The notes under the pieces were generated by a model. It did no database searches. It was not told the origin of the DNA and worked only from the letters and a program-made list of their open reading frames with translations. The position numbers and the translations under genes are program-made. Source: Candidatus Uhrbacteria bacterium (GTDB lineage: Bacteria > Patescibacteriota > Patescibacteriia > UBA9934 > UBA10169). Taken from it: a DNA stretch of 64,000 bases. Location of the stretch: assembly GCA_016187485.1 (NCBI GenBank), contig JACPJO010000003.1:25587-89586 (forward strand), given 5' to 3'. Positions 1 to 17,395 of this stretch are shown piece by piece. Each line of letters begins with the position of its first letter. Position 1 is the stretch's first letter.

Positions 1-382
1 CCCACCAGCGTGTGTCCGGCCAAAGCGTCGGTCGCGATCTCGATCTCGAAATCGCACCACACAGTGTTCTCGCGCGTCCCTACGCCACGGTAGACGCCGA
101 CCGGAATCTCGACGAGGTTGCAGACCGTGTCGCAGGTCTGCACGTCGAAGGTCCGCGCCGTGTCGGTGGGCGTGAGCGTGACGTGGACGCCGGTGATGGG
201 TGCGGGGGCATCGATGTAAGCACTCCCGTACTCGACAGTGTCGTCGTCGCCGTTGCCGTCGTCGTCCGCGACCGGATCGTCGTCGCCCGTGGGCGACTCG
301 ACCGGCGTGCCGGGAGTGCATCCCACGAACATCATGAGGGCCAGAAGGGAAAGGAACTGCGCTGCGAAGATGCGGGTCATGA
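1..382 (-). CDS. putative lipoprotein, 5' part only (gene runs off window start)
   Basis: Minus-strand ATG at 380-382 preceded by AGGAGG. Translation starts MTRIFAAQFLSLLALMMFVGC (signal peptide with lipobox Cys) followed by an Asp/Gly-rich acidic region. Open to position 1; not in ORF track because it has no stop within the window. Confidence 0.5.
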
Positions 383-419
383 CCGCCTCCTCCGTTGCCC
401 ACCCAAGACATATGGGTGG

Positions 420-452
420 AACCTAATCTATAAGTACTATAAATAGGCATTT
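420..452 (-). promoter_or_regulatory. candidate sigma-70 promoter (TTGACA-N17-TACTTA) with palindrome AGGCATTTTTGTCAATGCCT overlapping the -35
   Basis: Read on the minus strand upstream of the lipoprotein start and its RBS. The perfect 20-nt palindrome is centred on the -35 hexamer. Confidence 0.3.
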
Positions 453-570
453 TTGTCAATGCCTATTTACTATCTTTTCGCCTAAACTTAGCGAATAAAC
501 ACTTCTCTGCCGAACACATTTTTTACTCTTTTTGTCATTTTTCCCTCACCTTAGCCACATTCCAGCTTAC

Positions 571-651
571 GAACTTCACACAAGTGCCGATCGGCACTTA
601 CGTGAGGTTTTTCTACTTATCCACATCCCGGTGCCAGGCACCGGCAATTTG
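571..651. repeat. bipartite palindromic module, copy 1: 38-nt imperfect palindrome (core AAGTGCCGATCGGCACTT), then GGTGCCAGGCACC and CAATTTG 20 nt downstream
   Basis: Seen directly in sequence. Same architecture and the same 20-nt spacing recur at 57781-57885. Lies in an AT-rich spacer. Confidence 0.6.
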
Positions 652-704
652 AAAGCGACCCGTGGGGGTCGCTGCGAAGAAGGAACAGGGGCAGAGCCGA
701 CGCG

Positions 705-1259
705 CTACGCGGCGGCTTCGCAGGTCTCGTCCCACCAGGTGGCGAGCGAGAAGGCCTCGTGTCGGCGCTGGATCTCCTCGGTCTCCGGATGTTCCACGCC
801 GTACTCGACGCAGAGCGCCGGGCTGTTGTTGTCTCCTCGCCCGATGTAGACGAGCGCGACACGCTCGCTCGTGATCGTGAAGCCCTCCTGGTTCCTGCCG
901 CCATCGCACGGGGCTCCCCAACCGAGCTTGACCTGCGAGATGGAAAGGCCGCGGCCCAGATCGAGCCACGCGTCGGGTTCGAGAAGGGAGAGCTGGTCGT
1001 TGGCGATCTCGTGGGCGCCAAGCGCGACCACGGCGCGCGTTCCGATGAGCCCGCGGATCTTGGGCTCGACCCAGGAGATGAAACGCATGACCTCGACGGC
1101 GTCGAGAACGTAGGTGGAGTCGGCCTTGTTGGGACCCTTGTTGGGACCCCAGCACAAGCCGATGCCATGGATGGGAAGTTCCGAGAAAGGAATGCGCGGC
1201 ACGGCAGTCTCCGGACAGGGTTGAGAAAACCACGCCAACCTTCCCAAATATAGGCCCAT
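705..1259 (-). CDS. hypothetical protein (184 aa)
   Basis: ORF with ordinary amino-acid composition. The overlapping ORFs 613-1371, 617-1270 and 759-1253 are R/P/S-rich high-GC artefacts. No family recognised. Confidence 0.45.
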   Translation of the reverse strand: MGLYLGRLAWFSQPCPETAVPRIPFSELPIHGIGLCWGPNKGPNKADSTYVLDAVEVMRFISWVEPKIRGLIGTRAVVALGAHEIANDQLSLLEPDAWLDLGRGLSISQVKLGWGAPCDGGRNQEGFTITSERVALVYIGRGDNNSPALCVEYGVEHPETEEIQRRHEAFSLATWWDETCEAAA

Positions 1260-1313
1260 TTGTCAACCACTTGACGGCTTTTTTGGAGTCTGGTAAAAGA
1301 AGGGCACTCGCGC

Positions 1314-1389
1314 GCGGGCGTAGCTCAATTGGTAGAGCAGCGGATTCCAAATCCGCATGTTGCGGGTTCAAGTCCTGTCGCCCGTGCCA
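1314..1389 (+). tRNA. tRNA-Trp (anticodon CCA), CCA encoded
   Basis: Cloverleaf folded by hand: acceptor GCGGGCG/CGCCCGU, D arm GCUC-AAUUGGU-AGAGC, anticodon stem GCGGA/UCCGC with loop UUCCAAA, T loop UUCAAGU, discriminator G plus CCA. Confidence 0.85.
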
Positions 1390-1577
1390 ATCTTCTCTTC
1401 TTTACCACCGGTCCTCCTGACCGGTTTTCCTTTTTTAAAAAGTTGACGGCCAGAGTATTTCTCCCTACTGTCTACCCTGCGAACCTTTACAGAACGGAGT
1501 CCCTCGTGTTTTCCTCCCTAAGGTACGGCGCCTACTCATTGCTGAGCGTATCCCTCTTCGCCTCTGCCTACCGTGTC

Positions 1578-2474
1578 ATGAACACCCAGGTGCATGGGCT
1601 CTCCACGCCGGTCGCGTTCCTGGTCTTCAGCGTCTTTGCTCTGGCGAGTTCCGTGGTGATCACGCGGTTGTTCCACGGAGACGTCTTCCGGCACCTCTTT
1701 GATGCCTGCAGGACGTGGCAGTCGTGGGTGGCCGCCCTGGCCTATGCCGTGGGTTTCTTCCTCGGTTTGCAGGTCTATCAAGGGCCTGCAGAGGCCATCA
1801 TCGTCTTCCTTGTTGCTGATCTGTTGACGGGACCGTGCAACATCGTGGGAGAGTTCTTCGTTCTTCAGAAGAAGCCACAGAAGCCGGTGCACTCCGCACT
1901 CGCGTTCCTCGTGATCCTCGGTTGTCTGTGGGTAGAGAAGTTCGGCGTGGGGCCTGTGAATCGCGCGTTCATGGTCGTGGATGCAGTACTCGTGTTTGCC
2001 TTTGCGAACGTCATCATGGGGACAGCGTCGGAAATCTCTCGCGCACACGGACGGCAGAAGGTCGGCCTTTCTAAAGATGGAGTGCTGGTTCACGGAAACA
2101 TCGTGGCCATTCTCTTCGCGCTTGCATGGATCGTGGCAGACGTTTACAACGTCTCGCTCCTCCCTCGTCTGCACGACGTCATGCCGCCGCGCCTTCCCAC
2201 GTCAGGGGAGTGGGTAGCGCTGGCCTACCTCGGGATTTTTCCAACAGCGATAGGTCTCTCCATCCAGCACACGGTGCAGGATAAAGCGGGGTTCTTCGTC
2301 TCCGAGGCGGTAGAGGGAGTGCGGCCACTCCTTGTCTACCTCTTTGGTTTCCTCCCACTGTCGTGGCTCGTGGCCAAAGACCAACAGTGGTCCGGCGAGA
2401 AGGCGGCGGCTCTCGTCCTTGCCTGTGTTGCCGCTGGAGCTATCGTCATTTTCGAGCGCCCGCCAGAGAAGTAG
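1578..2474 (+). CDS. EamA/DMT-family membrane transporter (about 10 TM)
   Basis: Highly hydrophobic 299-aa product with repeated TM segments. The track ORF 1329-2474 begins inside the tRNA-Trp gene, so the start was moved to the first ATG after the tRNA. A GTG at 1507 is possible. Confidence 0.55.
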   Translation: MNTQVHGLSTPVAFLVFSVFALASSVVITRLFHGDVFRHLFDACRTWQSWVAALAYAVGFFLGLQVYQGPAEAIIVFLVADLLTGPCNIVGEFFVLQKKPQKPVHSALAFLVILGCLWVEKFGVGPVNRAFMVVDAVLVFAFANVIMGTASEISRAHGRQKVGLSKDGVLVHGNIVAILFALAWIVADVYNVSLLPRLHDVMPPRLPTSGEWVALAYLGIFPTAIGLSIQHTVQDKAGFFVSEAVEGVRPLLVYLFGFLPLSWLVAKDQQWSGEKAAALVLACVAAGAIVIFERPPEK

Positions 2475-2493
2475 TTCTCGTCGCGGCGCTTCT

Positions 2494-2520
2494 GAGACCG
2501 GTCCCGGTCTCTTTCTTTTT
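2494..2520 (+). terminator. rho-independent terminator after the transporter gene
   Basis: GAGACCG-GUCC-CGGUCUC hairpin followed by a UUUCUUUUU run. Confidence 0.4.
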
Positions 2521-2580
2521 GCTTTTTGAAATACGAAAGACCTCCGGCGGGAGGTCTAGGGAAAAAGATCGTTGCGTCGT

Positions 2581-4458
2581 TTAGGGCGTGATGCCAAAGA
2601 CGCGGCAGTAGAACGCGAGCTCTTCTTCGAGAGCGCGCGTGATGTTCTTCGCGTCCACGAAGCCGTGGCCTTCTTCGGCGAAGGTGATGTACGTGCAGGG
2701 GACACCTCTGTGTTCGAGTGCCGCAACCATCTTCTCGGCCTGACTCGGCGGCACGGCTGTGTCCTCGAGTCCCTGGCAGATGAGCATGGGGCAGCGGAGG
2801 TGGTCCACGGCGTAGATGGGCGAACGCGTCCGCCACTCATCCTCGGGCACGAGGCCAAACAGATAGCGCGCCTCGAACTTGTGCGTGTCGTCGTTCAGCG
2901 TCGTGAGGTCGCAGATGCCGAAGTGCACGACGCCGGCCTTGAAGAAATCGGTCGTCGTGAGAGCGGCGAGCACCGTGAACCCGCTCGCGCTCTGGCCGCG
3001 AATGGCGACACGATCCTTGTCCACGCGTCCTTCGACGATGAGGTGCCGGGCGCCAGCGATGCAGTCATCCACATCGTAGATGCCCCACATGCCATTCAGG
3101 CGTTCGCGGTATTGCCGTCCGTGGTTCGAACTGCCGCGGTAGTCCACATCGAGGACGGCGAAACCGCGGCTCGTCCAGAACTGGATGATGGCGTTGAAGG
3201 AGAGGCTGGCCGCGCTTGTGGGACCTCCGTGCGAGGTCACGATGAGCGGCGGCTGCGTGCCTTCCGGCGCCTGATGTTCCGGATTCTTCGGCGGGTAGAA
3301 GAAGCCGAAAGCTCGATTGTCACCGGTCGTCTTGAACTCGATGGCCTCCGGGGTCGAGAGGTACGCCTCCGGAACAGGAGCCGTCTCTCCGATGGAGTGG
3401 AGAGGACCGCCCGGAGGGCCCACGTAGATGGTCTGGGGACGCGTCGGACTTCCCCCGAGAATGGCTACACGCGTGTTGCTCGTCCGCACCTCGGAGACTT
3501 CGGAGAGTGGCAAAGCTTTGGTGCTGTAGCGGGCGCGGGGCGTGATGGAATCTACCGCCCAGCCTTCACTCCGACGGCAGGCGGCGAAGATCACGCCGTT
3601 GCAGAACCCGTAGTGCGACAGGCCGAAGGCCCACGGGGGCCTGGTGTGCTCACCGCAGATGGGGTCGGCGGGGTTCTTGATGGTTCCGCGGCTCCAGGCG
3701 TAGATGTTCCACCACCCCGTGATGTCTGAGATGAAGTGGAGCATGCCTCCCGGCGACCACGAGGGTTCCAGAATGGACTCCGGGTGCAGCCCCTCACCAT
3801 CCACGATGATTCCGCTCTGACGAATGGTTCCGTCCGTCTGGAGCTTTCCCCGGCAGAGCTGGGTGGCGCCCCACGGCATATGGGGGTGATGCCACTGGAT
3901 CCATGCGATCTCCTTGCCGGAGGGCGAGAGCCGTGGCGCGGCATAGAAATCAGCGCCCGAAACGAGAGGGGTCACCGTGCCGTCTGCGAGGTTGATGGTC
4001 ACGATTTCGGTGGTCGCGTCCACGTTCTTTGTGGCGCCCACATGATTCTCGCGCACAGCGATGAGCCGGCGGCGCGGTCGATCCAGGGTGAGGTCGGCGT
4101 AGAGGTGGTCAGGCGCCTCTTGGGTGATGGGCACCGGAGTGTCGTCCCGCAGAGGGTTGTAGCTGTACACGCGCCCATCCTTCTTGTGGAGGAAAAAGAG
4201 CTCTCCCTCATCCACGGCCATAGCGCCGCCGCCGTAGTGTGCGGACGCGAACGCGCTCCAGGGGGCGGGGAGGACGTCTTCGGGCGTTCCGTCGGGGCCT
4301 TCCCGCACGATGACGTACCGGCCCTCCTCAACCGGCCGCTTCTCGATCCAGTACAGGCGGTCGCCGTCGAAGTGCATTTCGACCTTCGAGGCTGACGCCT
4401 TTGCCGCGAGGGCGGGCGTGAGGGGGCTTGACCAGAGGCCAAAGGGGGTAATGTGCAT
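2581..4458 (-). CDS. S9-family serine peptidase (prolyl oligopeptidase/acylaminoacyl-peptidase-like; beta-propeller plus alpha/beta hydrolase)
   Basis: 625 aa. C-terminal hydrolase domain with nucleophile elbow GQSASG and downstream Asp/His. N-terminal repeat region typical of S9 propellers. Confidence 0.85.
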   Translation of the reverse strand: MHITPFGLWSSPLTPALAAKASASKVEMHFDGDRLYWIEKRPVEEGRYVIVREGPDGTPEDVLPAPWSAFASAHYGGGAMAVDEGELFFLHKKDGRVYSYNPLRDDTPVPITQEAPDHLYADLTLDRPRRRLIAVRENHVGATKNVDATTEIVTINLADGTVTPLVSGADFYAAPRLSPSGKEIAWIQWHHPHMPWGATQLCRGKLQTDGTIRQSGIIVDGEGLHPESILEPSWSPGGMLHFISDITGWWNIYAWSRGTIKNPADPICGEHTRPPWAFGLSHYGFCNGVIFAACRRSEGWAVDSITPRARYSTKALPLSEVSEVRTSNTRVAILGGSPTRPQTIYVGPPGGPLHSIGETAPVPEAYLSTPEAIEFKTTGDNRAFGFFYPPKNPEHQAPEGTQPPLIVTSHGGPTSAASLSFNAIIQFWTSRGFAVLDVDYRGSSNHGRQYRERLNGMWGIYDVDDCIAGARHLIVEGRVDKDRVAIRGQSASGFTVLAALTTTDFFKAGVVHFGICDLTTLNDDTHKFEARYLFGLVPEDEWRTRSPIYAVDHLRCPMLICQGLEDTAVPPSQAEKMVAALEHRGVPCTYITFAEEGHGFVDAKNITRALEEELAFYCRVFGITP

Positions 4459-4558
4459 GGGGGATTCCTTTCGTCCGGCCCAATGACATCAAAGTGACGA
4501 TGGTTTGTAAAGTCGAAACCCCGCGGATGGGCGGGGTGTGAAGAAGGAACTTGTTGTC

Positions 4559-5989
4559 CTAGCTCATGGCTCTCTTGAGGTCCCACACGAACCGTTCAAG
4601 GTGAGGGATCGTGTGAGGCATGAGGCAGAGCTTGTAGACAGTGGCTGGGCACGCGTTGGGGTCGCGGCCGCTGCCATCGAGTCGCTCGATGTGGTCGCTG
4701 CGCAGGTGGTAGGGGGCCAACGGGCCGTCTCCCTGGCGCAGGTACTCGGGGATGGCGCCATCCTCGATGTTCACCTCAAGCGGCAGGAACGGCGTGGCCT
4801 TGTGGTACGGCCAGAACCGGATGCGTTCGTCGCCGTCGAAGCGATCCATGAGGAGTCCGCGCAGAAGGTCGCGCGCCCCGATGCACTTCTTCACGAACGC
4901 GCGCTGGCCCGACACGCCGAGACTGCGCATGAGGTACCACGCGAGCACGGGCGAGACGGCCGAACGCGACCCGGGAAGAGTGTCGTCCGCGTGTCCGTTC
5001 ACGTACGCGACGTCTTGGGTCACGAGTCCCTGAAGGCCCTTCCGGCAGAGGAAGATGCCGGCAGGGTAGGGCACGCCGCCCATCTTGTCGGCGTCCACCG
5101 CGATGGAGCGCACGGCGGGAAGGTCGAAGCCGAAGCGGATCTCGGGCGCCATGAAAGGGACCGTGAAGCCGCCGAAGGAGGCATCCACGTGCAGGTAGCA
5201 GTTGTCCCGTTCCCGGAGCAGGTGTGCGATCTCCTCGACAGGGTCCACGGCGCCGGTGAGGCAAACCCCCACGGTGGCGACGACGAGGAAGCGTCGGTAC
5301 CCGCCGCCCTCGAGAGACCGGATGGTCTCCATGAGGTGCTCGGGGTCCATCGCCCCGTCAGCGCGCAAGCGCACATGGAAGATCTGGCCGTGGCGCGGCT
5401 TGCTCTCGAAGCAGTGCTTCCGCCCACAGCGCGGGCATTTCTCCCAGTGCGCGCGGGCGATGTCGAGGAGCTGGGCGCCCTTGTAGACGGAGTAGTGCGC
5501 CGTCGGAGCCACGAGGATGGCGGTGCCAACCTCGAAGGGATCCGCGATCTTGCTCTGCAGGTACTCCCGTCCAATCCACATCCCCTGCAGGTTGGCTTCG
5601 GTGCCGCCGCCGCAGAAGAAACCGTCCACCGTGGCGGGCACTCCGCCCATCACACTGGCCACCATCCAGACAGCCTCGGCCTCCATACGCTGGATCTGCT
5701 CGAAGCCGCCTTCGCCCTCGGCGAACGACCAGCTATCGCCCTGCGCTTCTCCGTGCGTGTGCGTGCCGATCGCGTTCAAGTGCCGGACGAGCAGGGGGCC
5801 TGCGAGGTCCGCGAGCTCCCGCCGCAACGGGGTGCCCGGATAGCAGAAGGGGGGCGGGGTCGTCTCGTAGGGGGAGCCGATGGTCTGGACGAGTTCACGG
5901 ACTGTCTCGAGATTTGCTGGCTTCTCGGGCCAGCGCCAGGCAGGTTCTCCTGTCATGGTCAATTCTCCACGGTAGCGAACTACCGCCAT
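4559..5989 (-). CDS. PLP-dependent group II decarboxylase (aromatic-amino-acid/glutamate/MfnA-like family) with a CPRCGRKHC zinc-knuckle-like insert
   Basis: 476 aa. Fold-type I decarboxylase-like layout with VDADKMGG (PLP lysine region) and Gly-rich loops. The family call rests on motif-level similarity only. Confidence 0.7.
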   Translation of the reverse strand: MAVVRYRGELTMTGEPAWRWPEKPANLETVRELVQTIGSPYETTPPPFCYPGTPLRRELADLAGPLLVRHLNAIGTHTHGEAQGDSWSFAEGEGGFEQIQRMEAEAVWMVASVMGGVPATVDGFFCGGGTEANLQGMWIGREYLQSKIADPFEVGTAILVAPTAHYSVYKGAQLLDIARAHWEKCPRCGRKHCFESKPRHGQIFHVRLRADGAMDPEHLMETIRSLEGGGYRRFLVVATVGVCLTGAVDPVEEIAHLLRERDNCYLHVDASFGGFTVPFMAPEIRFGFDLPAVRSIAVDADKMGGVPYPAGIFLCRKGLQGLVTQDVAYVNGHADDTLPGSRSAVSPVLAWYLMRSLGVSGQRAFVKKCIGARDLLRGLLMDRFDGDERIRFWPYHKATPFLPLEVNIEDGAIPEYLRQGDGPLAPYHLRSDHIERLDGSGRDPNACPATVYKLCLMPHTIPHLERFVWDLKRAMS

Positions 5990-6135
5990 TACTCTACACT
6001 TGCCGGCTCCCTTGTCAACGGCGACTGATCAACACTAAGTGTGGATCAGTTTGTAGGGGAGAAATGCGATTTTCTAAAAGCTAGCAATTCGAAACCAGGC
6101 CTTGGGGCCTGGTGAGAGAGAAAGGATCGACTGAA

Positions 6136-7065
6136 CTAGTGGTCCCACGCGCCTTCCGGCTTGGGGGATTTCACGTCCTTCATGATTGCCCAGAGTTCCG
6201 GGTAGAGGCGTGCCGTGCGCAGGATCGCGTCGAGGTACGGGACCCCGTCTGATCCAGCGGTGCCCGCGGTGTTCGGACCCAGAAAGTGGATGGCGAGTTT
6301 GAGGTGCACCTGACGGAAGTCGAGGTACGTTTTCTCGAAGCGCCAGATTGCCTGGGCAAGCCGACGCAAGGGGTGACCCTTGTGCGCGTCGCTCATGAGG
6401 TCTCCGAGTGCGATCTCTGCCCGGACGAGCGCTTCCTTGAAGCGACACACGACCGACGGGGTACGGGCGCGCTCCTCCATCTTGAGCGTCCACCAGCGGG
6501 ACGAACGCCCGTGCATTCCTGCGGGGACGTTCATTGTTCCCCGGAACGTGAAGGTGCGACCGTGAATGGTCATGTAGGGCGAGTCCGACCGCATGCCGGC
6601 CAGGAGTTCCACCTCACGCGCCTGTGCGGATTCCGCACCGCTTGCCGGGACGACCTCGTCTCGGAACCCGACCCCTTTTTTCATGAACAGATCTTTGTCC
6701 ATGCGGAAGAGGAGGCGGGTGGAGTCGATGGCTGACTTCATCCAGGAGATGGCCCAGCGCATGTGCGGCAGGGCGCCATCGGAGTCGTCCTTCTCGATCG
6801 CGTCGCGCGTCATCTCGAGTTCACGGATGACGCGCAGAAGCGCGAGTTCGCATGCCTGGTGCACCACGATGAAGTTTGCCTCCTCGTGGTTGATCGCTGC
6901 ACGCGTGTGGGCACTGCCCACGTTCGGCTCGCCCGCTGCGGGAAGGATCACACGCAGGCCGATGTAGGTGCAGTAGTGTGGCTTGGCCGGATCGGCGACT
7001 TCATGCCCGCAGGCCAGAACGACCGTGCCGGGAGTGGATGACTCTCGCCAGTGGGACTCGTCCAT
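6136..7065 (-). CDS. tryptophan 2,3-dioxygenase-like heme-dependent aromatic oxygenase
   Basis: NHEEANFIVVHQACELAL matches the H-E-x-x-F-I-x-QHQ-x-SEL distal-His motif of TDO. C-terminal WRF...FRQVH...LGPNTAGTAGSDGVPYL matches the WRFRH...IGxxxGTGGSSG proximal region. The start codon overlaps the trpS stop (ATGA). Confidence 0.65.
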   Translation of the reverse strand: MDESHWRESSTPGTVVLACGHEVADPAKPHYCTYIGLRVILPAAGEPNVGSAHTRAAINHEEANFIVVHQACELALLRVIRELEMTRDAIEKDDSDGALPHMRWAISWMKSAIDSTRLLFRMDKDLFMKKGVGFRDEVVPASGAESAQAREVELLAGMRSDSPYMTIHGRTFTFRGTMNVPAGMHGRSSRWWTLKMEERARTPSVVCRFKEALVRAEIALGDLMSDAHKGHPLRRLAQAIWRFEKTYLDFRQVHLKLAIHFLGPNTAGTAGSDGVPYLDAILRTARLYPELWAIMKDVKSPKPEGAWDH

Positions 7066-8108
7066 CAGACACCCCGTACGCCCATGAGGTGCTTTGCGCG
7101 CGCCACCGTGGGAGCGATGTGCTCGCGCGCCCGCCGCCCGCCGTCATGCAGGATGGCCTCGATATAGTCGTCGCCCTGGGCCTTGATGGCCCGGTAGCGC
7201 TCCTGCAGGGGGGCGAGGAGGTTGACGATCCGATCGCCGAGGTCCGTCTTGCACGCTCCGCACTCGATGTCTCCGCTCTTGCAGGCGTTGCGGAGTTGCA
7301 GCTCGCGCGTGACATCGCCCGGCAGGAGCGTGTGGAGCTGGAAGACGCGGCAGATCTCGGGCTCTCCCGGACTGGCGCCGACGCGCGGCTCCACCGGGTC
7401 GGGCAGAGACGGGGTCGGCGGCAGCTTCTTGTCGGCGCGCCGGCACCGCTTCATGATCACGTCGGGCGTCTCGTCCAGACTGATGGTGCTCTCGGGATGG
7501 CTCTTTCCCATCTTGCCCGTACCCTTGAGGCCCGGGACGCGCACGCCGGGGCCATCCATCAGGTCGGGGACGGGGAAGAGTTCCTCGCCCACCATCTTGT
7601 TGAACCGGCGCGCAAGCGTGCGCGCCAGCTCCACGTGCGGGTGCTGGTCCTCGCCCACGGGCACGAGGTGCGCCGAGGGGGCCAGGATGTCGGCCGCCAT
7701 CAGGACGGGGTAGGTGTAGATGCCGGCGTTGGGCGGATTGCCGCCCGCGGCCATCTCGTCGCGCTTCTCCTTGAAGTGGGGAAGCCGGTCGAGCTCGCCC
7801 ATGCCCACCAGGCACATGAGCAGCCACGTGAGCTCCGTGATCTCGGGGACCGAGCTCTGCGCGTAGATGACGTGCCGCGCGGGGTCGATCCCGGCGGCCA
7901 AGTACCAGCGGACGATCTCGCGCATGTCTGCCTCGATCGCCTCGGACTCCTCGCGCGTCGTGAGCGTGTGGAGGTTGGCGATGAAGAAGAAGCACCGATA
8001 GTCGGGCTTCTCTGCGAGTTCCGCGAAGAAGCGGATGGCGCCCAGGTAGTTGCCGATGTGCAAGCGCCCGGTGGCGCGGATCCCGGAGAGGACGATTTGT
8101 GCGGACAT
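7065..8108 (-). CDS. trpS: tryptophanyl-tRNA synthetase
   Basis: Class I aaRS signatures HIGN (HIGH) and KMGKS (KMSKS). 347 aa, with a CKSGDIECGACK insertion. Confidence 0.9.
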   Translation of the reverse strand: MSAQIVLSGIRATGRLHIGNYLGAIRFFAELAEKPDYRCFFFIANLHTLTTREESEAIEADMREIVRWYLAAGIDPARHVIYAQSSVPEITELTWLLMCLVGMGELDRLPHFKEKRDEMAAGGNPPNAGIYTYPVLMAADILAPSAHLVPVGEDQHPHVELARTLARRFNKMVGEELFPVPDLMDGPGVRVPGLKGTGKMGKSHPESTISLDETPDVIMKRCRRADKKLPPTPSLPDPVEPRVGASPGEPEICRVFQLHTLLPGDVTRELQLRNACKSGDIECGACKTDLGDRIVNLLAPLQERYRAIKAQGDDYIEAILHDGGRRAREHIAPTVARAKHLMGVRGV

Positions 8109-8284
8109 GAGGTTTCCAGAGTACGCCCGGGGAGGAAGTTCCGCGGGGTGCCTTTACCCTAGAGCCAAGCGAAATACCTGTCAACTAAGCGAACCTCGCT
8201 GTCGTTATTTGACGTGCGTTACTCGCCTATAGTATGTTGTCTGCAGTCCTTTTCCTTATTTCAAAGCCATTGAACCGAGAAGTA

Positions 8285-8545
8285 GTAGCGTACAAGCTCC
8301 CTGGGTAGCGAGCGGGGGAGAGTGCAAGCCCCGTCATAGCGGTACGTGAAATTGGGCTCGGTGAGGCGGGTGTTGCATTGGTGACATCCCGGAAGCTCCC
8401 GTAACCATGAGCGAACGCATATCTACGGAGTGCGTAAAAGCGCCAGGCGTATTGTTTGGCAGAGAGGTGGTACCGCGGGAAGAATCCCCGTCCTCTCAAG
8501 TCACCTATGGTGGCTTGCAAGGACGGGGCTTTTTGTACCCGCACT
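8285..8545 (+). promoter_or_regulatory. T-box riboswitch leader (probably Trp-specific) with intrinsic terminator
   Basis: Conserved T-box sequence AGAGGUGGUACCGCGGG at 8463-8480. It is immediately followed by a terminator (CCCCGUCCUC...GAGGACGGGG plus UUUUU, 8487-8535) that overlaps the antiterminator. An upstream stem I candidate carries GUGAAAUUGGGC, with possible specifier UGG. Sits between trpS and the TrpD-like gene. Confidence 0.55.
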
Positions 8546-8557
8546 GGAGGAACGACG

Positions 8558-9919
8558 ATGCACAGCAAGATCCCTCTCTCCCCTGCCTACACGAAGAAGT
8601 TGCGCATGCGCGAGGCGCTGTTCGAACCCGCCCAGCTCCTTCCTGTCCAGGAACGTCTGCTTCGCTCCATCGGCAAGTATCGCTACACGGACCTCATCCG
8701 CGCGACGCTTGGCCGGCACCTCAACATGGAGGAGGCATTCGTCGCGATGTGCTACGCCCTTCGGGCCTCCAACGGCTACCTCGAACGCCTGTACCTCTCC
8801 GGACTTGACGATTTCGGCGAAACCGGAAACGTCATGGCGGCGCGGGAGATGCTCTCGGGTCTGGCCATGAAGGAGGCGTGGGCGCATCTTACGCCCTCTG
8901 AGATTGCCGGGATGGTCGCGGCAACCATGATGGATGTCATGCGCTTCCCCGCATACGGGGACCGTGTCTTCGAGAACTGCGGCATGGGAGGGGATCGCGG
9001 TGTTCAGTTCAACGGAGAGCCGTTCCGTCGCAAGACGATCAATGGCTCTACGCTCTCCACTCTCGTGCTGGCTACTCTGCGCATCATCCAGACGGCGAAG
9101 CACGGTTCCTACGCCAACACGTCTGCCGTGGGCTCAACGGACGCTATCGAGCACCTCGGCGTCCGCGTGGACCTGCCGAACGTTGGGGTGCAGAATCGTC
9201 TCGCTGCGCTCGGTTTCCACTTCACCGATGCCCACGCGTGGAAGACGATTCACGATCTCTCTCACGCGGAGCCGCGTCGGGAGACGGTGAACCACATCGT
9301 GGGACCGCTTACGCCCCCGATCCACCCGGACATCGAACTCTTCAAGATCGTCGGCGTGAGCGAGAAGATGCATCCGCAGATCGTCGCCAAAGCCCTTGCG
9401 GTTCTGGGTGACGAGGGGGTCTTCCGCCTCAAGCACGCTGCCGCCGTGTGTGGACTCGAACGCGTTATCGACGTCGAGGAAGTCTCCGTGCACGAGCGCG
9501 TGCGTAGTGTCACGGTCCTCGACGAGCTCTCGCCTATCGCTTCGGCGGTGGCCATTGTGAGGAACGGGGAGTACTGCGGTACGCATATTCTCACGCCGAG
9601 CATGTTCGGCACCGCTCCTTTCAAGAACCCGCTCTCGGTGTTTGTAGAGAATACGGTGGAGCGCATCATGGAGGCAAACCGCACCGCGCTCTCGGGCGTG
9701 GACGATGGAAGGGACCTCGTTCCCTTCCTCGCCATGAATGCGGCGTTCAGCCTCTACCTGGTGGACTGCCTCACGGATGATCCTGTGTCCGAGACACGGC
9801 CGCCGTCCAGGGATGCTCTCTCCACTTGCTACCAGCGCTGCCTCGATGTGCTCCAAAGCGGGCGCGTCAAGCAGTTCGTCGACGGTTACGCCGAGCGGAG
9901 CCAGACGATTCAAGACTGA
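8558..9919 (+). CDS. glycosyltransferase family 3 protein (anthranilate phosphoribosyltransferase TrpD-like), divergent with long N-terminus
   Basis: ENCGMGGDRG...KHGSYANTSAVGSTDAIEHLG and NHIVGPLTPP resemble the TrpD/family-3 CGTGGDG, KHGN...S and GPLTNP motifs. Start placed at the ATG with GGAGG 7 nt upstream; the track ORF start at 8456 would run through the T-box leader. Confidence 0.6.
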   Translation: MHSKIPLSPAYTKKLRMREALFEPAQLLPVQERLLRSIGKYRYTDLIRATLGRHLNMEEAFVAMCYALRASNGYLERLYLSGLDDFGETGNVMAAREMLSGLAMKEAWAHLTPSEIAGMVAATMMDVMRFPAYGDRVFENCGMGGDRGVQFNGEPFRRKTINGSTLSTLVLATLRIIQTAKHGSYANTSAVGSTDAIEHLGVRVDLPNVGVQNRLAALGFHFTDAHAWKTIHDLSHAEPRRETVNHIVGPLTPPIHPDIELFKIVGVSEKMHPQIVAKALAVLGDEGVFRLKHAAAVCGLERVIDVEEVSVHERVRSVTVLDELSPIASAVAIVRNGEYCGTHILTPSMFGTAPFKNPLSVFVENTVERIMEANRTALSGVDDGRDLVPFLAMNAAFSLYLVDCLTDDPVSETRPPSRDALSTCYQRCLDVLQSGRVKQFVDGYAERSQTIQD

Positions 9920-9965
9920 CGTTCTTTTCTTTCGGGCCTCCACGGGGGCCCTTTCCAAATTGACT

Positions 9966-10781
9966 ATGAATTCTTGTTTGTCACCACAAGTTATTGGGAT
10001 GGTGCACTTTTCCCCTCTGAATGGCGATCCGGCCTATCCAGGTGAAAAGATTCTTTTTGATCGAGCTCTCGCTGATATCCACGCCCTGCAAAATGGCGGA
10101 GTAGATGCCATCATGTTTGAGAATAATTTTGACAACCCAAAGTTTGAAATACTTCCCAAAGAACAGGCAGAGTCTTTTTCTTTACTTGTCGAGCGACTTC
10201 TTCCGAAAGTGAAGCTTCCATGGGGAGTGAGTGCTCTGTGGAATGATTATCGTCTGGCACTTTCTCTTTGCCAAAAGTTCGGCGGGGTGATGGTGCGCGT
10301 TCCGGTGTTTGCCGACCAAGTTGAGACGGTCTACGGGATCTTCGATGGACATCCAGAAGACGTTCTGTCATTCCGGTCGTCTATCGGCGCGGATCATGTA
10401 AAGATTTACGTAGACGTGCAAGTGAAGCATGCACGATTGACACAACCCCGCCCGCTTGCCGAATCCATCGCTGACACTGTTTCTTACCCGATTGACGGCA
10501 TCATTCTTACGGGGTCTTGGACAGGCGATCCACCGTCGGTGGAGGATTGCCAGCTTGCACGCTCTCTCGCTCCACGTCACATGGAAGTACTGACAGGAAG
10601 TGGCATGACGAGTGAAAATATCGGCGCTTTTCTTCCGTACATGCAGGGTTGTATTATTGGGACGGCGTTTAAAGAAGTAAAAGGACCCCAAAAGAGTGGG
10701 CCAAATGTTGTCGGGCCAGAGGTGCGTTACGATCCAGAACGAGTACAGGGGTTTATGCAAAAGATCCGGTGGCATACTTAG
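9966..10781 (+). CDS. BtpA/SgcQ-family TIM-barrel protein
   Basis: N-terminal VIGMVHFSPLNGDP matches the BtpA family signature. Lies in a low-GC (about 48%) islet. Confidence 0.55.
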   Translation: MNSCLSPQVIGMVHFSPLNGDPAYPGEKILFDRALADIHALQNGGVDAIMFENNFDNPKFEILPKEQAESFSLLVERLLPKVKLPWGVSALWNDYRLALSLCQKFGGVMVRVPVFADQVETVYGIFDGHPEDVLSFRSSIGADHVKIYVDVQVKHARLTQPRPLAESIADTVSYPIDGIILTGSWTGDPPSVEDCQLARSLAPRHMEVLTGSGMTSENIGAFLPYMQGCIIGTAFKEVKGPQKSGPNVVGPEVRYDPERVQGFMQKIRWHT

Positions 10782-10796
10782 CCAAAAGGATAGGAG

Positions 10797-11324
10797 ATGC
10801 ACTTGCAAAAGCTCATTCTCTTTGTCTGTAGGGGGAACATCCATCGCTCTGTGGTTGCCGAGCTTCTGGCGCGCAAGCTTCTTGTGGCGAACGGCCACCC
10901 GGATGTAGAGGTTGGGTCCCGTGGCCTGCAGTGGTACATGGGCGAACCGCCTCGCCATCCAAATCTGATGCATTACCCGTCGGCGTGGGAAGGATCGCGG
11001 GAAGCTCTTGCCGAGCGTGAAGTTGATGTGTCCCGGCACATTGCTCGTCGGCTTGAGCTTGAGGACATGGAGCGCGCAGATGCTGTCATTGTGATGGATC
11101 AGGAACTTCTCCGAGACAGTCCGACGAGTGTTCTCAACCTCTTCCCTTCGTATGGGGAGAAGACGCATCTCTTCTCCGAGCTGATTGACAAGATTCAAGA
11201 TGTAGAAGATCGTGGTGAGTACGCAAGCACGTCCGAGTATCGTGCAGCCGTGGAGGAAATCGAATCGACGCTCGTTTCCGGCCTGCCCCGCCTTCTCTTG
11301 TGGGTCGGTGAGGGTGTTCCTTAG
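10797..11324 (+). CDS. low-molecular-weight protein tyrosine phosphatase / ArsC-like
   Basis: P-loop VCRGNIHRS (C-X5-R) 10 residues from the N-terminus. Size 175 aa. Confidence 0.7.
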   Translation: MHLQKLILFVCRGNIHRSVVAELLARKLLVANGHPDVEVGSRGLQWYMGEPPRHPNLMHYPSAWEGSREALAEREVDVSRHIARRLELEDMERADAVIVMDQELLRDSPTSVLNLFPSYGEKTHLFSELIDKIQDVEDRGEYASTSEYRAAVEEIESTLVSGLPRLLLWVGEGVP

Positions 11325-11347
11325 CAATTTTCCATAGAGGTTTTGCA

Positions 11348-12319
11348 ATGAATCTTCCCGCTTACTTCTGGCATGTGCACAGCAATAACCCAAGCGGCGG
11401 GCCCAAGGTCATGGTCTTGGGCGGCACGCATGGGGATGAGCACACGGGACTCTGGGTCGTCCATCATCTGCTCAAGAAGTTCGGCATCGAGGGCGCGCCC
11501 TGCGGTTCGTACCAGGCCAATGGGATGTTGGGCGATCTCTACATCGGGATCGGCAACCCAGAGGCGGTTCTGCGCGGCGTGCGCGGTGTCTCCATCGAGA
11601 AGGACCTGAACCGGTGCTTCGAACCGATGGTCATGGACAGTCCGGCCAACACGTTCCACGATGTCATGCGGGCGCGGGAACTCTTCCCGCTCCTCTGTCA
11701 GATGGACTACCTCTTCGACATCCATGCCGTGAGCAACCCCAAAGCCTCACCCTTCGTCTGCTTCGGCAAGATGACGCCCGAGCACCGGCGGCTGTGCGAC
11801 CTCATTCCGGTCCGGCACATCCTCACGGACCCCGACAACATCCTGCCCACGGACGATCCGGGAAGCCAGATGCTCTCGACGACCGACGCGGTCGTGGACC
11901 GCAACGGCGGGACGGCGATCACCTACGAGACCGGCTTCCAGAGCGATGCATCCAAGCTCCCGCGGGCGATCCGTGTGCTCGTGCGGCTCCTGTGCGGGGA
12001 AGGGGCAGGGGTGATCGACGACCGTCTTGCACGGCACATCCTCAAGGGCGTCAAGTACGTGCGCCCTACGATGCCCGATCAACGCGTGTTCGCGCTGACC
12101 CATTGCCTCGTTGCCAGGAGCACAGACCTCGGGTTCGAGCATGGGAAGAAGAGCATGCTCAAGAACTGGCACCCTGTGTGCAAGGGGGAGCGCTACGGAC
12201 GCTACACGGATGATGGAGAGGTCGTCCTCATTCCGGCGGACGGGTTCATCGTTTTTCCCACGAAGCCCGACCGGATGAAGCCCAACAAGGCGATGGTCTA
12301 CATCGCCCGTGCACTCTAG
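11348..12319 (+). CDS. succinylglutamate desuccinylase/aspartoacylase (AstE/AspA, M14-like) family deacylase
   Basis: GGTHGDEHTG zinc-binding motif near the N-terminus. 323 aa. Confidence 0.65.
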   Translation: MNLPAYFWHVHSNNPSGGPKVMVLGGTHGDEHTGLWVVHHLLKKFGIEGAPCGSYQANGMLGDLYIGIGNPEAVLRGVRGVSIEKDLNRCFEPMVMDSPANTFHDVMRARELFPLLCQMDYLFDIHAVSNPKASPFVCFGKMTPEHRRLCDLIPVRHILTDPDNILPTDDPGSQMLSTTDAVVDRNGGTAITYETGFQSDASKLPRAIRVLVRLLCGEGAGVIDDRLARHILKGVKYVRPTMPDQRVFALTHCLVARSTDLGFEHGKKSMLKNWHPVCKGERYGRYTDDGEVVLIPADGFIVFPTKPDRMKPNKAMVYIARAL

Positions 12320-12342
12320 GGATCCATGATCTCTTTCTCTCC

Positions 12343-12371
12343 CTCGTCCACGGACGAGGTTTCGACTTTTT
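12343..12371 (+). terminator. rho-independent terminator
   Basis: CCUCGUC-ACG-GACGAGG hairpin plus UUUCGACUUUUU. Confidence 0.4.
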
Positions 12372-12428
12372 ACAGCGTTTCGAAAACCCGCCGATGTGCA
12401 GCGGGTAGGACTTCTCTGGCGGCGTTCT

Positions 12429-12878
12429 CTAGCCAAGCCGTTCGAAGTATTGAAGAAATGTACGTGCGTCGCCCTTGCGGCTCGAAGAAAAAAAGCGTCG
12501 TCCATGCCGAGTGTCCACCGCGTAGAGGAGGTTCTGACGGTCGGCGAGCATCATGCGCTGGTAGACGGTGCCATTTGCCACCCGGAAGAATTTATACGTC
12601 GCGAACGTGACAGGCACGCGTTCCTCGAACGCGTGGGCATCCTCTTCCGTACCAAAGCCCGCGCGGACAAGGCGTACTCCCTCCTTCATGCGACTCCCGA
12701 GAAGGTGGAAGTAGTCCGTCGGGAGCGGCTTTGTGAGTTCCTCTGCAAGGTCCATGGTTACCAGAATCTCCTCCCTTGCATTACCAACGAGGGACATGGC
12801 AAGGGAAAGAATCTGGTCTGCCGGAACGCAACAGCGACCGACAAGGAGCCGGCACAATTGCTGTTTAATCATGTGCAC
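12429..12878 (-). CDS. hypothetical protein (149 aa)
   Basis: Balanced composition, and a divergent promoter-like region lies between it and the 13022 gene. The overlapping plus-strand ORF 12396-13025 is K/R-rich and would cover the RBS of the next gene. Confidence 0.4.
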   Translation of the reverse strand: MHMIKQQLCRLLVGRCCVPADQILSLAMSLVGNAREEILVTMDLAEELTKPLPTDYFHLLGSRMKEGVRLVRAGFGTEEDAHAFEERVPVTFATYKFFRVANGTVYQRMMLADRQNLLYAVDTRHGRRFFSSSRKGDARTFLQYFERLG

Positions 12879-13021
12879 CTCGATCCGTGTTTAAGATACA
12901 GGAAGCGCGGATACCAAGCAATCTTCCTCTTTCAGCGTTCCGTGCCGGGCAAGTTATCCACAAAAATGTTTGCGCGAAAGGTGCTTGTTTTGAATACTCG
13001 AGTCCTAGGAGGTGCCAAGCC

Positions 13022-13963
13022 ATGACGGATCTCGGTATTGCTGCATCGGTCGCGGCCAACCAGATGCACGGGGACGATGGAGACGGTCGGATTATTCTCG
13101 CTCACGGCGACATCCGCCCTCTGCAGAGTCAGGTTGAGTCTGCTCATCAGACGCTCGACAACGTGGACCAGATCTTCCCCCTCGAAACGGGGGAAGGGGG
13201 GTCGGCGCCGGTCGAGGTTGATACGTCGGCCAACATGCTCGCGCCTCCGCCCCGCACTGACCCGGAGATCATCCGGCAGCTCTGGGAGAAGGTGAAGGAC
13301 ATGCGACGTCGCCGCCGGGCGCGGATCGATGAAGCGTGGAGGCGGTTGGGTGAGCTCGGTCGCGCGGCAGTCGAGCAGGCCGGCCCGCCTTCGACGGATG
13401 CTGTCGCAGTGGCTCTGCGTGAAATCGTGGGGCACGCGTACGCGGCCGCCGAGGTTACCGAGACGCTCCAGCGCCTGGGAGTGCTCGTCTCGTCGCGGCA
13501 GTCTCTTCTCGAGACCATGCTCTTCTGGCGCCTGTCCGAGTCCGTTCGGACCGAGATGCGCCACCAGGACCTCCTTACCCTCGTGAACGTGTTCATCGAG
13601 GTCGAGGAAGGGTTCCCCTACGCCTGGCCGTTTCAATTGTCGCCGCTCGTGTTCCCCTTCATCTCGGAAGAGGCGAATCATGCCCTCGCGCTCCTTGAGG
13701 GCAAGGCTTTGGCCTGTTGGGCTCCGGAAGGGGACGACGAGCGCGCGCCGGTGGTGCACGACCTGGCGCTTGAAGTGCTTCACGCGGCCACTGTCTGCGC
13801 AGGCTCTTCGCGCGAGGCATGTGCGCACGACCTCAACTGGAGCAACTGGCGCTACGCCATGATGACGCTCAAGCGCTACCCCAAGTACTGGCGACTGTGG
13901 GGCGACGCGCTCCAGTTCCTCTCCGTTCATTTTTTCGGATCGACGCTCCTCGAGAACGTCTGA
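13022..13963 (+). CDS. hypothetical protein (313 aa)
   Basis: ATG with AGGAGG 8 nt upstream. TTGCGC-N17-AATACT promoter-like element upstream. The antisense ORF 12932-14011 is R-rich. Confidence 0.55.
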   Translation: MTDLGIAASVAANQMHGDDGDGRIILAHGDIRPLQSQVESAHQTLDNVDQIFPLETGEGGSAPVEVDTSANMLAPPPRTDPEIIRQLWEKVKDMRRRRRARIDEAWRRLGELGRAAVEQAGPPSTDAVAVALREIVGHAYAAAEVTETLQRLGVLVSSRQSLLETMLFWRLSESVRTEMRHQDLLTLVNVFIEVEEGFPYAWPFQLSPLVFPFISEEANHALALLEGKALACWAPEGDDERAPVVHDLALEVLHAATVCAGSSREACAHDLNWSNWRYAMMTLKRYPKYWRLWGDALQFLSVHFFGSTLLENV

Positions 13964-13976
13964 CACGACTTTTCTT

Positions 13977-14005
13977 GCGACGCCAAAAGCGTCGCTTTCG
14001 ACTTT
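13977..14005 (+). terminator. rho-independent terminator
   Basis: GCGACGC-CAAAA-GCGUCGC plus UUUCGACUUU. Confidence 0.45.
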
Positions 14006-14338
14006 ATACACACAGGCGCCCCGTTTTGTCGGAAACTCCTGACAACACTTTTGCGCAAGAATGAGTTGTTTTCGTAACCCTTGTTGGAAACTAATGACAG
14101 AAACTGCTTAGTTTAGCCAAAAAACCATTGACAAAACCGCATTTTTCTGGCGTAATGACACTGTTAACACGCTCGATATGCCCACAAATATATCGAGGAC
14201 CGCCGGCGGTCGGTAATCGCGAGGATGGAGGTGCTACAATCTATAGAGCTCGTGTGCGTCCGTGTGGAATGCTTATGGATGTACATGTGGCCACACGACT
14301 TTTTGGACAGTCCCTTATGGGACAAGCATCTCATCTAT

Positions 14339-14944
14339 ATGATGTCCCCTGAACGTATTGGATATCTACTCCTAGGCCTCACCCTCGCGGCCGCCGTTTT
14401 GTACGGACTCTTCGAGCTTCGGGCCCGTACGAACACACAACCGTCGTCGCAGGCGGAATCGAGAGAGGGGGAGACCCCGCTTCCGCCTGGCGATGAACTT
14501 GATCGGATCTTGGCTTCACTACCTTCGTCGGAACGTTCCACGTTCGATCCTGCATCGATCGAGTGGGTTCCCTACACCGACGGCACGGACAAGTTTTTCC
14601 TCGAACGTCCGCGTGGGTGGGAAATAACCGAGACGGCTCATGCAACCTATCCGGAGGCTCGACGCATTACCGTAGTCGAGGGGCAAGCGGCGTTCACAAT
14701 CTATCCGCGCGGGGAATTCGACTACGGTCTTCCGGCGCGTCCGTCAGCCAGTACGGCGGTCGCGGTAAGTGGACGACCGGCGACTCTGCGTGAGTGGAAT
14801 CTGCCAGATGGGTCTTGGCTTGCTGTTGCGACGCTCGATGAGCAGCCAACCGAGGGATTCCGCATCGAACTCTCGGTTCTGAATCCAAGTCTTGTCTCAC
14901 AGCAGATTCTACGCGAGATGCTTAGTCGCTTTCAGCTTCTCTAA
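14339..14944 (+). CDS. hypothetical membrane-anchored/secreted protein
   Basis: Start placed at MMSPERIGYLLLGLTLAAAVLYG (N-terminal hydrophobic anchor). The longer upstream extension lacks coding character. Confidence 0.4.
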   Translation: MMSPERIGYLLLGLTLAAAVLYGLFELRARTNTQPSSQAESREGETPLPPGDELDRILASLPSSERSTFDPASIEWVPYTDGTDKFFLERPRGWEITETAHATYPEARRITVVEGQAAFTIYPRGEFDYGLPARPSASTAVAVSGRPATLREWNLPDGSWLAVATLDEQPTEGFRIELSVLNPSLVSQQILREMLSRFQLL

Positions 14945-15050
14945 ATTTTTCTCCCAGATCTCCCTTGCTTCCTGCCTAGGATAGCAGGGGAGGTCTCCCA
15001 AGTAATTCTGCTTGGGCGGTCTCACGGTGATTCTGTCACTGGAGAGAGCC

Positions 15051-17342: not shown

Positions 17343-17366
17343 GGGGAACGGACGCAACCACTCTTG

Positions 17367-17395
17367 CCCCGCCATTCGCGGGGCTTTCGAAATTT
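17367..17395 (+). terminator. rho-independent terminator
   Basis: CCCCGC-CAUUC-GCGGGG plus CUUUCGAAAUUU. Confidence 0.45.

Follow-up and report, generated by a model that had tools for sequence, protein, structure and literature searches.

How might a member of the candidate phyla radiation (CPR), a group of organisms thought to make no amino acids, sense the want of one of them, and which genes would it switch on in response? This question is raised by a 64 kb stretch of DNA from contig JACPJO010000003.1 (the whole stretch analysed, hereafter the window), in which a structured leader RNA at 8261-8498 on the forward strand precedes a gene for a TrpD-like protein. A preliminary description, made from the sequence of the window, had read this region as a T-box leader in an otherwise CPR-like context. 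We conclude, with a probability that we put at about 0.9, that the leader is a T-box riboswitch of class I that attenuates transcription and has tRNA-Trp as its specific ligand. As an RNA, it is an ordinary further T-box; the interesting part is its target, which is conserved.

Detection, architecture and covariation of the leader

The Rfam T-box model RF00230 matches positions 8261-8498 (+) over its full length (model positions 1-219 of 219) with a score of 83.7 bits and an E-value of 1.1e-18 in a local search, or 1.2e-16 for both strands of the entire window, which bears out the claim that a T-box leader is present. The element begins about 24 nt upstream of position 8285, where the preliminary description had placed it, so that the location proposed there held for the T-box itself and not for its start. 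With E-value thresholds, this is the sole T-box on either strand of the window. The Rfam gathering score of RF00230 is 93 bits, and the leader surfaces only with E-value thresholds; a scan of the window at gathering thresholds returns five tRNAs only and leaves the leader unlisted. Among the orthologous leaders, for which the RF00230 scores are 94.8, 90, 83.5, 73.9, 62.4, and 57.8 bits, those denoted L001 and L070 clear the Rfam cutoff (94.8 bits each), and 94.8 bits is also what the orthologue from the nearest Uhrbacteria genome scores. A second core-like motif in the window (GGGTGGCACCACG at 52257, GAGGGTGGCACCACG in 52245-52270, both on the reverse strand) lies inside an open reading frame (ORF) and has no T-box match, and was dismissed as a chance occurrence.

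Stem I (8267-8366), delineated from the Rfam alignment and pair counts, starts with a K-turn (AUUGAA / UGAG) followed by a helix, CCGAG (8275-8279) / CUCGG (8357-8361), and a specifier loop with AAGUAGUA on the 5' side, GAA-AU-UGG-G on the 3' side, and an AGUA/GAA S-turn. Further out are the AG bulge, AGCGA (8307-8311), and the distal loop, GAGAGUGCAAG (8318-8328). Inspection of stem I, as the preliminary description had proposed, shows that the K-turn, the specifier loop (AGUA...GAA), the AG bulge, and the distal loop each align to RF00230. The next block (8368-8412), defined in an alignment of 30 CPR leaders, consists of stem II (GGGUGU, 8368-8373 / ACAUCC, 8384-8389), stem IIA (CGG, 8390-8392 / CCG, 8399-8401), and the IIB pseudoknot (GCUC, 8395-8398 / GAGC, 8409-8412). 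Between the pseudoknot and stem III, RNAalifold predicts an extra hairpin, ACGCAU...GUGCGU (8415-8435), which is kept in seven Uhrbacteria-type leaders and is an insertion with respect to the Rfam model. Stem III (8441-8460) aligns to the stem III positions of RF00230 and forms in the fold of the full leader.

The T-box core and antiterminator occupy 8462-8497, as indicated by the fold, the Rfam consensus, and covariation. The core, AGAGGUGGUACCGCGGG (GAGAGGUGGUACCGCGGG at 8462-8479), agrees with the Rfam consensus GGGUGGUACCGCG, and the motif quoted in the preliminary description, AGAGGTGGTACCGCGGG, is found at 8463-8479. The antiterminator, GAGAGG / UGGUACC bulge (8468-8474) / GCGGG ... CCCCG / CCUCUC, folds at -15.9 kcal/mol and leaves the 7-nt bulge unpaired. 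It competes with an intrinsic terminator that spans 8486-8534 including the U-tract, in which the 5' arm CCCCGUCCU (8486-8494) lies within the 3' strand of the antiterminator and the 3' arm AGGACGGGG (8520-8528) is followed by C and then by UUUUU (8530-8534). The terminator hairpin (8486-8528) begins 7 nt after the T-box motif, in agreement with the claim that a terminator follows within 10 nt, and folds at -32.6 kcal/mol (z-score of -8.5 against shuffled sequences). The terminator and antiterminator share 8486-8497 and accordingly are mutually exclusive, as expected from the alternative pairing that had been suggested. When the whole leader is folded, both the minimum-energy and the centroid structures contain the terminator hairpin, the expected default OFF state.

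The Shine-Dalgarno sequence GGAGGA (8546-8551) and the start codon ATG (8558-8560; the same ATG is chosen in the gene call on identical contigs) are located 12-24 nt past the U5 tract, unpaired and not sequestered. We take the control to be transcriptional because both lie beyond the terminator. Some T-boxes work differently: those of actinobacterial ileS genes, with short or ultrashort stem I, are reportedly class II and translational (an account said to go back to Sherwood and Henkin, 2015), and structures of the ileS T-box from Mycobacterium tuberculosis reportedly followed in 2019. A mainly translational switch that hides the ribosome-binding site in the same manner would be in line with the ultrashort stem I of many CPR relatives of the window leader and with those leaders, such as L044, that have no obvious U-tract terminator after the antiterminator. 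In the window, however, the competing hairpin carries a U5 tract and the ribosome-binding site and start codon are free, and we consider a translational mechanism very improbable here.

Covariation points to the same structure. In an alignment of nine distinct Uhrbacteria-type leaders (A4), which was fitted to the model and hence is biased towards the structure, 95.2% of the stem I positions are paired versus 75.8% in shuffles, 14 of the 21 pairs are altered on both sides, and slid controls are 30-44% paired. For stems II, IIA, and IIB taken together, the pairing in a MAFFT alignment of 30 CPR-wide leaders (A6) is 81.4% versus 60.8% in shuffled alignments, and the covariation score is 0.536 versus 0.179, a value attained in none of 500 shuffles (slid controls, 0.09-0.25). 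Double changes occur in all six pairs of stem II and all five pairs of IIB, and the pseudoknot partners vary in concert (GCUC/GAGC, GUCC/GGAC, CCCC/GGGG, GCUGG/CCAGC, GUUGG/CCAAC, and GAAGU/ACUUC). RNAalifold predicts 49 pairs for seven full leaders, 23 of these with compensatory changes, and the antiterminator helices also carry compensatory changes (alignment A2).

Architecturally, the window leader is like the class-I T-boxes of Firmicutes (those of Bacillus subtilis tyrS and glyQS, or the Trp-specific ones of trpS and trp operons), with which it has in common the K-turn, the S-turn specifier loop, the platform of AG bulge plus distal loop, stem II, the IIA/B pseudoknot, stem III, the 7-nt UGGNACC bulge, and the competing terminator; judging from the sequence, the logic of codon-anticodon and bulge-NCCA pairing would be the same as well. 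It differs from the Firmicutes T-boxes in its host, a member of the CPR (Patescibacteria), in the 2-nt spacer between GAA and the codon, in the extra conserved hairpin between the pseudoknot and stem III, in its score just below the Rfam cutoff, and in its target, a TrpD-like/BtpA operon rather than trpS, trpEGDCFBA, or a Trp transporter.

Specifier and cognate tRNA

The specifier that we assign from the sequence and from related leaders is UGG (8353-8355) with a 3' purine, G8356, placed after the S-turn GAA (8348-8350) and a 2-nt spacer, AU. The UGG-containing sequence in which the preliminary description had sought the specifier codon, GAAATTGGGC, is located at 8348-8357. From the window sequence alone, AUU, UUG, and UGG are each conceivable in GAA-AUUGGG. 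The specifier regions of related leaders, which were read by eye as an automatic helix-finding search was too noisy, include GAAAUUGGR, GAACAUGGG, GAAAUGGG, and AGAAUGGG; at the level of single loci, L001, L002, L006, and L007 have GAAAUUGGA/G, L008 has GAACAUGGG, L005 has GAAAUGGG, and L004 has GAAAAUGGG. The spacer between GAA and UGG accordingly varies (AU, CA, or A), and UGG followed by a purine is the only triplet that holds register against the closing helix in the orthologous leaders. More distant CPR leaders with a truncated stem I read (A/G)UUGGGG, AGAAUGGG, GGAAUGGA, or AGGGUUGGA, with UGG in all of them. There is an ambiguity in four WWE3 loci, which read UAGUGGU, where GUG followed by G is another conceivable reading.

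The window encodes a tRNA-Trp at 1314-1389 (+), identified by ARAGORN, Rfam, and the sequence itself, with the anticodon CCA, the discriminator base G73, and an encoded CCA end. The comparison of specifier and tRNA-Trp advised in the preliminary description gives a clear answer: UGG complements the CCA anticodon. The antiterminator bulge is UGGC in most relatives, and G73 is found in most of the tRNA-Trp genes in the same loci. In two WWE3 loci, the tRNA-Trp (L037:7365-7438 and L038:8478-8551, the latter given on the reverse strand) apparently has A73 and no encoded CCA end; the bulge of both leaders is UGGC, a mismatch with the usual covariation of bulge and discriminator.

Several observations weigh against a tRNA-Trp-specific, transcription-attenuating T-box. 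The score of the window leader falls 9 bits short of the curated Rfam threshold, even as the match is full length. A simple terminator scan passed over 8486-8534, because the stem has internal loops, and listed only a weak site at 8188-8200. The triplet right after GAA is AUU (Ile), and the Trp assignment depends on the 2-nt spacer and on comparison with relatives. The bulge of the window leader, UGGU, favours a tRNA with A73, whereas the G73 of tRNA-Trp only wobbles with U8471. Finally, none of the known functions in tryptophan supply can be attributed to the regulated genes. As regards the Rfam threshold, the shortfall is a matter of degree, all structural elements being present.

Some of these features would fit a T-box that has AUU (Ile) or UUG (Leu) as its specifier and senses tRNA-Ile or tRNA-Leu. 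In the textbook arrangement, the codon directly adjoins GAA, which is here followed by AUU-G, and tRNA-Ile and tRNA-Leu usually have A73 as the discriminator, with which the bulge UGGU would form a Watson-Crick pair. Yet AUU and UUG vary among the orthologues (in L008, L005, and L004), whereas the closing helix is always abutted by UGG and a purine, and the CPR leaders with an ultrashort stem I have the loop AGAAUGGG. Furthermore, the UGGC of most relatives suits the G73 of tRNA-Trp, and the neighbours of the leader are trpS and tRNA-Trp rather than ileS or leuS. We therefore rejected an Ile or Leu specifier, given that only UGG keeps register among the orthologous leaders, and regard it as very unlikely.

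With UGG as the specifier, the switch can be envisaged as follows. A sigma-70-like consensus scan yields a promoter-like element, TTGACG, an 18-nt spacer, and TATGTT, at 8209-8238 (+), and a TTGACA-like hexamer, read by eye, is also present upstream of most of the related CPR leaders; we infer that this is the working promoter, with transcription starting near 8240. Nascent stem I would capture tRNA-Trp by pairing of UGG (8353-8355) with the CCA anticodon, and the tRNA elbow would be contacted by the distal platform, which the AG bulge builds together with the distal loop. An uncharged tRNA would pair through its free 3' end, G73-C-C-A, with UGGU of the bulge (8468-8471, with a U.G wobble at position 73) and stabilize the weak antiterminator (8462-8497), such that RNA polymerase would read into the operon predicted at 8558-12319 (TrpD-like gene, BtpA, phosphatase gene, and AstE/AspA-like gene). 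On a charged tRNA, the amino acid would prevent the pairing with the bulge, and the stronger terminator (8486-8528 plus U5) would form and stop transcription.

The conserved target of the T-box

The first regulated gene (8558-9919, +) encodes a 453-aa protein of glycosyl transferase family 3 (Pfam PF00591, 61 bits) and belongs to a TrpD-like family that was found here mainly in CPR. A profile of 29 homologues matches only anthranilate phosphoribosyltransferases in the PDB (best E-value of 1.4e-25), and the top Foldseek matches of the AlphaFold2 model, which has a predicted local distance difference test score (pLDDT) of 94.7, are TrpD structures, with template modelling (TM) scores on the target of 0.81-0.86 (0.85 quoted) at 18-23% identity. 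The motifs that in TrpD (TIGR01245; PDB 1ZYK, 1KGZ, and 5NOE) bind phosphoribosyl pyrophosphate (PRPP) and Mg (GTGGD, NxST, KHG, and DE) have invariant counterparts in the family: G142/G144/D146 (GMGGD), N162/S164/T165 (N-x-S-T), K181-H182-G183, and D322-E323. Given that the PDB matches are to TrpD only, we rejected a role as AMP phosphorylase or thymidine phosphorylase.

The protein scores 97.5 bits against the TIGR01245 trpD model and fails the equivalog cutoff of 199.05 bits; the earlier claim of a TrpD-like gene accordingly stands with respect to the fold and the PRPP/Mg motifs and does not extend to a TrpD equivalog. There are about 100 extra N-terminal amino acids. N109 and R164 of Sulfolobus TrpD, which we take to be ligands of the anthranilate carboxylate, align to the invariant S184 and S235, and R170 aligns to the invariant E242; at this point an invariant His-rich motif of the family, AH..KTIHDLSH, stands in place of the sequence of the aligned TrpDs. 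The invariant residues H226, H232, D233, H236, E242, and H246 make up a His/Asp/Glu cluster, a candidate metal or acceptor site. Sequence and model together suggest that the protein is probably a PRPP-dependent phosphoribosyltransferase. Because of the failure against TIGR01245, the N-terminal extension, and the replaced ligand positions, we label it TrpD-like, with an acceptor that is probably other than anthranilate.

The downstream gene could instead be an ordinary, divergent anthranilate phosphoribosyltransferase, in which case the T-box would control tryptophan biosynthesis or anthranilate salvage, similar to the arrangement in the trp operons of Firmicutes and Chloroflexi. The TrpD fold, the exclusive PDB matches to TrpD, the preserved PRPP/Mg motifs, and the tryptophan specificity of the T-box would all agree with this possibility. 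It is at odds with the TIGR01245 score, with the serine and glutamate residues at the three Sulfolobus positions, and with the N-terminal extension. The genomic context is discordant as well: trpA, trpB, trpC, trpF, trpE, and trpG are absent from the top 25 families of 150 neighbouring ORFs and from five annotated contexts, and the partners of the TrpD-like gene are BtpA, or a HAD hydrolase and a nucleoside hydrolase, in contrast to the trpF/trpC partners of TrpD. On balance, an ordinary TrpD appears unlikely, although it is the alternative to which we give the most room, and we retain the assignment to a TrpD-like enzyme with a different acceptor.

The second gene (9999-10781, +) encodes a 260-aa protein of the BtpA/SgcQ family (PF03437, 162 bits; TIGR00259, 157 bits versus a cutoff of 153). 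BtpA is a TIM-barrel family, presumably a phosphate-binding barrel, and no relatives with a solved structure were detectable by sequence. The next two genes, identified by Pfam, encode a low-molecular-weight phosphatase (10797-11324, +) and an AstE/AspA-family deacylase-like protein (11348-12319, +). In this block (10797-12319) the intergenic gaps are 15-23 nt, a spacing that suggests co-transcription, and the two genes are the probable rest of the operon. AstE/AspA-like genes recur beside the TrpD-like gene in other CPR loci.

The survey set for the conservation analysis consisted of 66 genome loci that encode the TrpD-like family. In 38 loci, a regular-expression search detects a T-box core upstream of the TrpD-like gene together with an antiterminator that matches it; in L019 and L043, the T-box heads an operon that contains this gene. 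An independent covariance model that covers stem II through the pseudoknot (R2) yields 36 matches in 606 kb searched on both strands, all of them on the strand of the gene and just upstream of it, and adds L015, L045, L054, L060, and, weakly, L057. Taken together, a T-box with UGG precedes the TrpD-like gene in about 42 of the 66 CPR loci, and several of the loci without a T-box are contigs that end a short distance upstream. RF00230 itself picks up leaders from Azambacteria and other Parcubacteria at 31-40 bits. A stem I covariance model built from Uhrbacteria leaders (R1) finds only Uhrbacteria-type leaders; the other CPR leaders, which have a truncated stem I, were found by the regular expression and R2. 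The T-box upstream of the TrpD-like family is conserved across CPR and is not an oddity of one genome.

This conservation bears on the possibility that the window leader has no regulatory role and resembles a T-box by chance or as a decaying remnant, left, for example, by a former T-box-trpS arrangement. A score under the Rfam gathering threshold would be in line with this, and trpS (7065-8108, -; TIGR00233, 264.9 bits versus a cutoff of 176.75) does adjoin the leader, being divergent from it and hence not behind the T-box. Such an origin is hard to square with the E-value of the match, with compensatory changes that extend to all helices, the pseudoknot among them, over phylum-level diversity, with the intact overlap of terminator and antiterminator, and with the retention of the leader upstream of the same gene in so many loci. 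We consider it the least probable of all the explanations discussed here, and a functional T-box remains our assignment.

The partners of the TrpD-like gene follow a pattern. Of 55 genes directly downstream, 36 encode BtpA and 8 a HAD hydrolase. BtpA is present in 57 of the 66 loci, and of the other nine, eight encode an inosine-uridine nucleoside hydrolase, in some cases beside a TrpD-like/HAD fusion; as partners of the TrpD-like gene, the nucleoside hydrolase (L012, L019, L021, L036, L050, L052, L056, and L063) and BtpA are almost mutually exclusive, which suggests that one module displaced the other in the same pathway. A full-length gene for tryptophanyl-tRNA synthetase (TrpRS) lies within 4 kb in 42 of the 66 loci (31-47% identity, E-values down to 1e-84), tRNA-Trp(CCA) genes are found in 23, and in L042, L044, L046, and L048, the T-box, the TrpD-like gene, BtpA, and trpS follow in this order on one strand. 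The census of the 150 flanking ORFs recorded tRNA-synt_1b (20), AstE/AspA (9), PLP decarboxylase (6), PfkB (6), nucleoside hydrolase (5), a chorismate-mutase-like/methyltransferase fusion (4-5), and M20 peptidase (3). The fusion, of a type II chorismate mutase and a SAM methyltransferase, stands beside trpS and the TrpD-like gene at L072:5421-6545 and L074:12533-13783 and in about 7 of the 66 loci, and is odd for organisms that are generally described as being without amino-acid biosynthesis.

A role in the supply of tryptophan or in the response to its lack is indicated because the module is kept beside trpS and tRNA-Trp, and the regulated enzymes probably constitute a tryptophan-starvation response. 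We suspect, at somewhat less than even odds, that the T-box(Trp) together with the TrpD-like gene and BtpA (or the HAD hydrolase and nucleoside hydrolase) forms a regulon for tryptophan starvation that is ancient, spans the CPR, and is physically linked to trpS and tRNA-Trp, and which would encode a PRPP-dependent pathway of tryptophan acquisition or sparing in these biosynthesis-poor episymbionts; the T-boxes, among them a transcriptional form with an ultrashort stem I, would then be native to the Patescibacteria and possibly their principal nutrient sensor. Alternatively, tRNA-Trp might serve as a general starvation proxy for ribonucleotide or PRPP metabolism, a scenario that we consider because the HAD, nucleoside hydrolase, and PfkB partners fit it.

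If the tryptophan-starvation interpretation holds, a natural sensor of uncharged tRNA-Trp marks a conserved pair of enzymes as part of that response and provides a handle on the way in which CPR bacteria sense deprivation of a nutrient supplied by the host, as well as on the roles of a CPR-specific TrpD paralogue and of the long-enigmatic BtpA/SgcQ family. Published phylogenies place CPR within Terrabacteria beside Chloroflexota, and canonical T-boxes across CPR fit this placement. Native T-boxes could also become regulatory parts for the emerging genetic systems of Patescibacteria.

In the literature library searched, we found no paper that links T-boxes to CPR, Patescibacteria, Parcubacteria, or Saccharibacteria, although automated database entries may exist, and nothing relevant on BtpA together with TrpD; candidate phyla go unmentioned in the TBDB paper. 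A 2024 perspective on Patescibacteria (PMC11665869) describes cell-cycle regulation in these bacteria as "virtually unknown" and refers to riboswitches only as synthetic tools. The interest of the system lies in its CPR-wide conservation, in the variants in which a terminator goes with an ultrashort stem I, and in the target operon with its tight link to Trp.

Leader variants and the surroundings in the window

The distal part of stem I is absent in many CPR leaders (L017, L031, L034, L039, L041-L048, L049, L051, and L066) and also in one Uhrbacteria leader (L005:3710-3906). In these truncated forms UGG is located in or next to the terminal loop, AGAAUGGG in L017, L031, L034, L039, and L051 and AGGGUUGGA in L041-L048. 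Like the actinobacterial ileS T-boxes, many of the CPR relatives dispense with distal stem I and keep stem II and the IIA/B pseudoknot; the window leader, unlike the actinobacterial ones, has a full-length stem I. Terminator hairpins with U-tracts follow some of the leaders with an ultrashort stem I (for example, L031, L039, and L049), which on this sequence evidence appear to be transcriptional. In a subclass of leaders (L041-L048, L019/L073, and L066), a conserved CGGAGCCGAAACCGUAAAAAG replaces the usual covarying IIA/B pseudoknot; this subclass has a hairpin with a U6 tract upstream of the T-box core and is undetected by R2.

Two loci with the TrpD-like gene, L024 and L036, are labelled Woesearchaeota archaeon (DPANN; metagenome-assembled, labels as recorded). 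In L024, genes for TrpRS, a PLP decarboxylase, and an AstE-like protein are found near the TrpD-like gene, a similar gene cluster without the T-box; neither the core search nor R2 detected a T-box in L024 or L036.

The CPR-like context noted in the preliminary description is substantiated by the names of the homologues and the best genome loci. Named homologues of the TrpD-like protein come from Candidatus Uhrbacteria, Paceibacterota, Azambacteria, Parcubacteria, and other Patescibacteria, among genome loci the best is that of Candidatus Uhrbacteria RIFOXYB12_FULL_58_10 (59% identity), and metagenome contigs carry the identical gene and gene order. The lineage of the window is CPR, closest to Candidatus Uhrbacteria. 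The rest of the window is compatible with CPR, with large ORFs without a Pfam match, type IV secretion-like genes, ClpB, RecG, PheT, and a Mur ligase.

On the opposite strand, trpS belongs to a divergent string of genes (2581-8108, -) that also includes a tryptophan-2,3-dioxygenase-like gene, a group II decarboxylase dependent on pyridoxal phosphate (PLP), and an S9 peptidase. The dioxygenase-like match is weak and partial (55 bits), and the decarboxylase resembles MfnA and histidine decarboxylase. Enzymes that modify tryptophan would not be expected in an organism presumed unable to make this amino acid; decarboxylase and dioxygenase-like genes are found again close to the TrpD-like gene in a few further CPR loci.

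A sub-cutoff Rfam match to 'Plastid-psbl-rps4 3'UTR' (26525-26579, -; 53 bits) is antisense to tRNA-Ser(GCU) and is almost certainly an artefact of tRNA-like sequence. Region 17479-25000 contains large ORFs without a Pfam match (923 aa and 504 aa) and a TraG/VirB4-like ATPase (22919-24895), and a type IV secretion system pilin-domain protein is encoded at 36916-38118 (-); by sequence, these genes suggest a type IV secretion-like apparatus. The G+C content is 59-65% in positions 1-18000, which include the trpS/T-box/TrpD-like island, versus 51-56% in most of 18000-64000, a step that could reflect compositional heterogeneity or horizontal acquisition.

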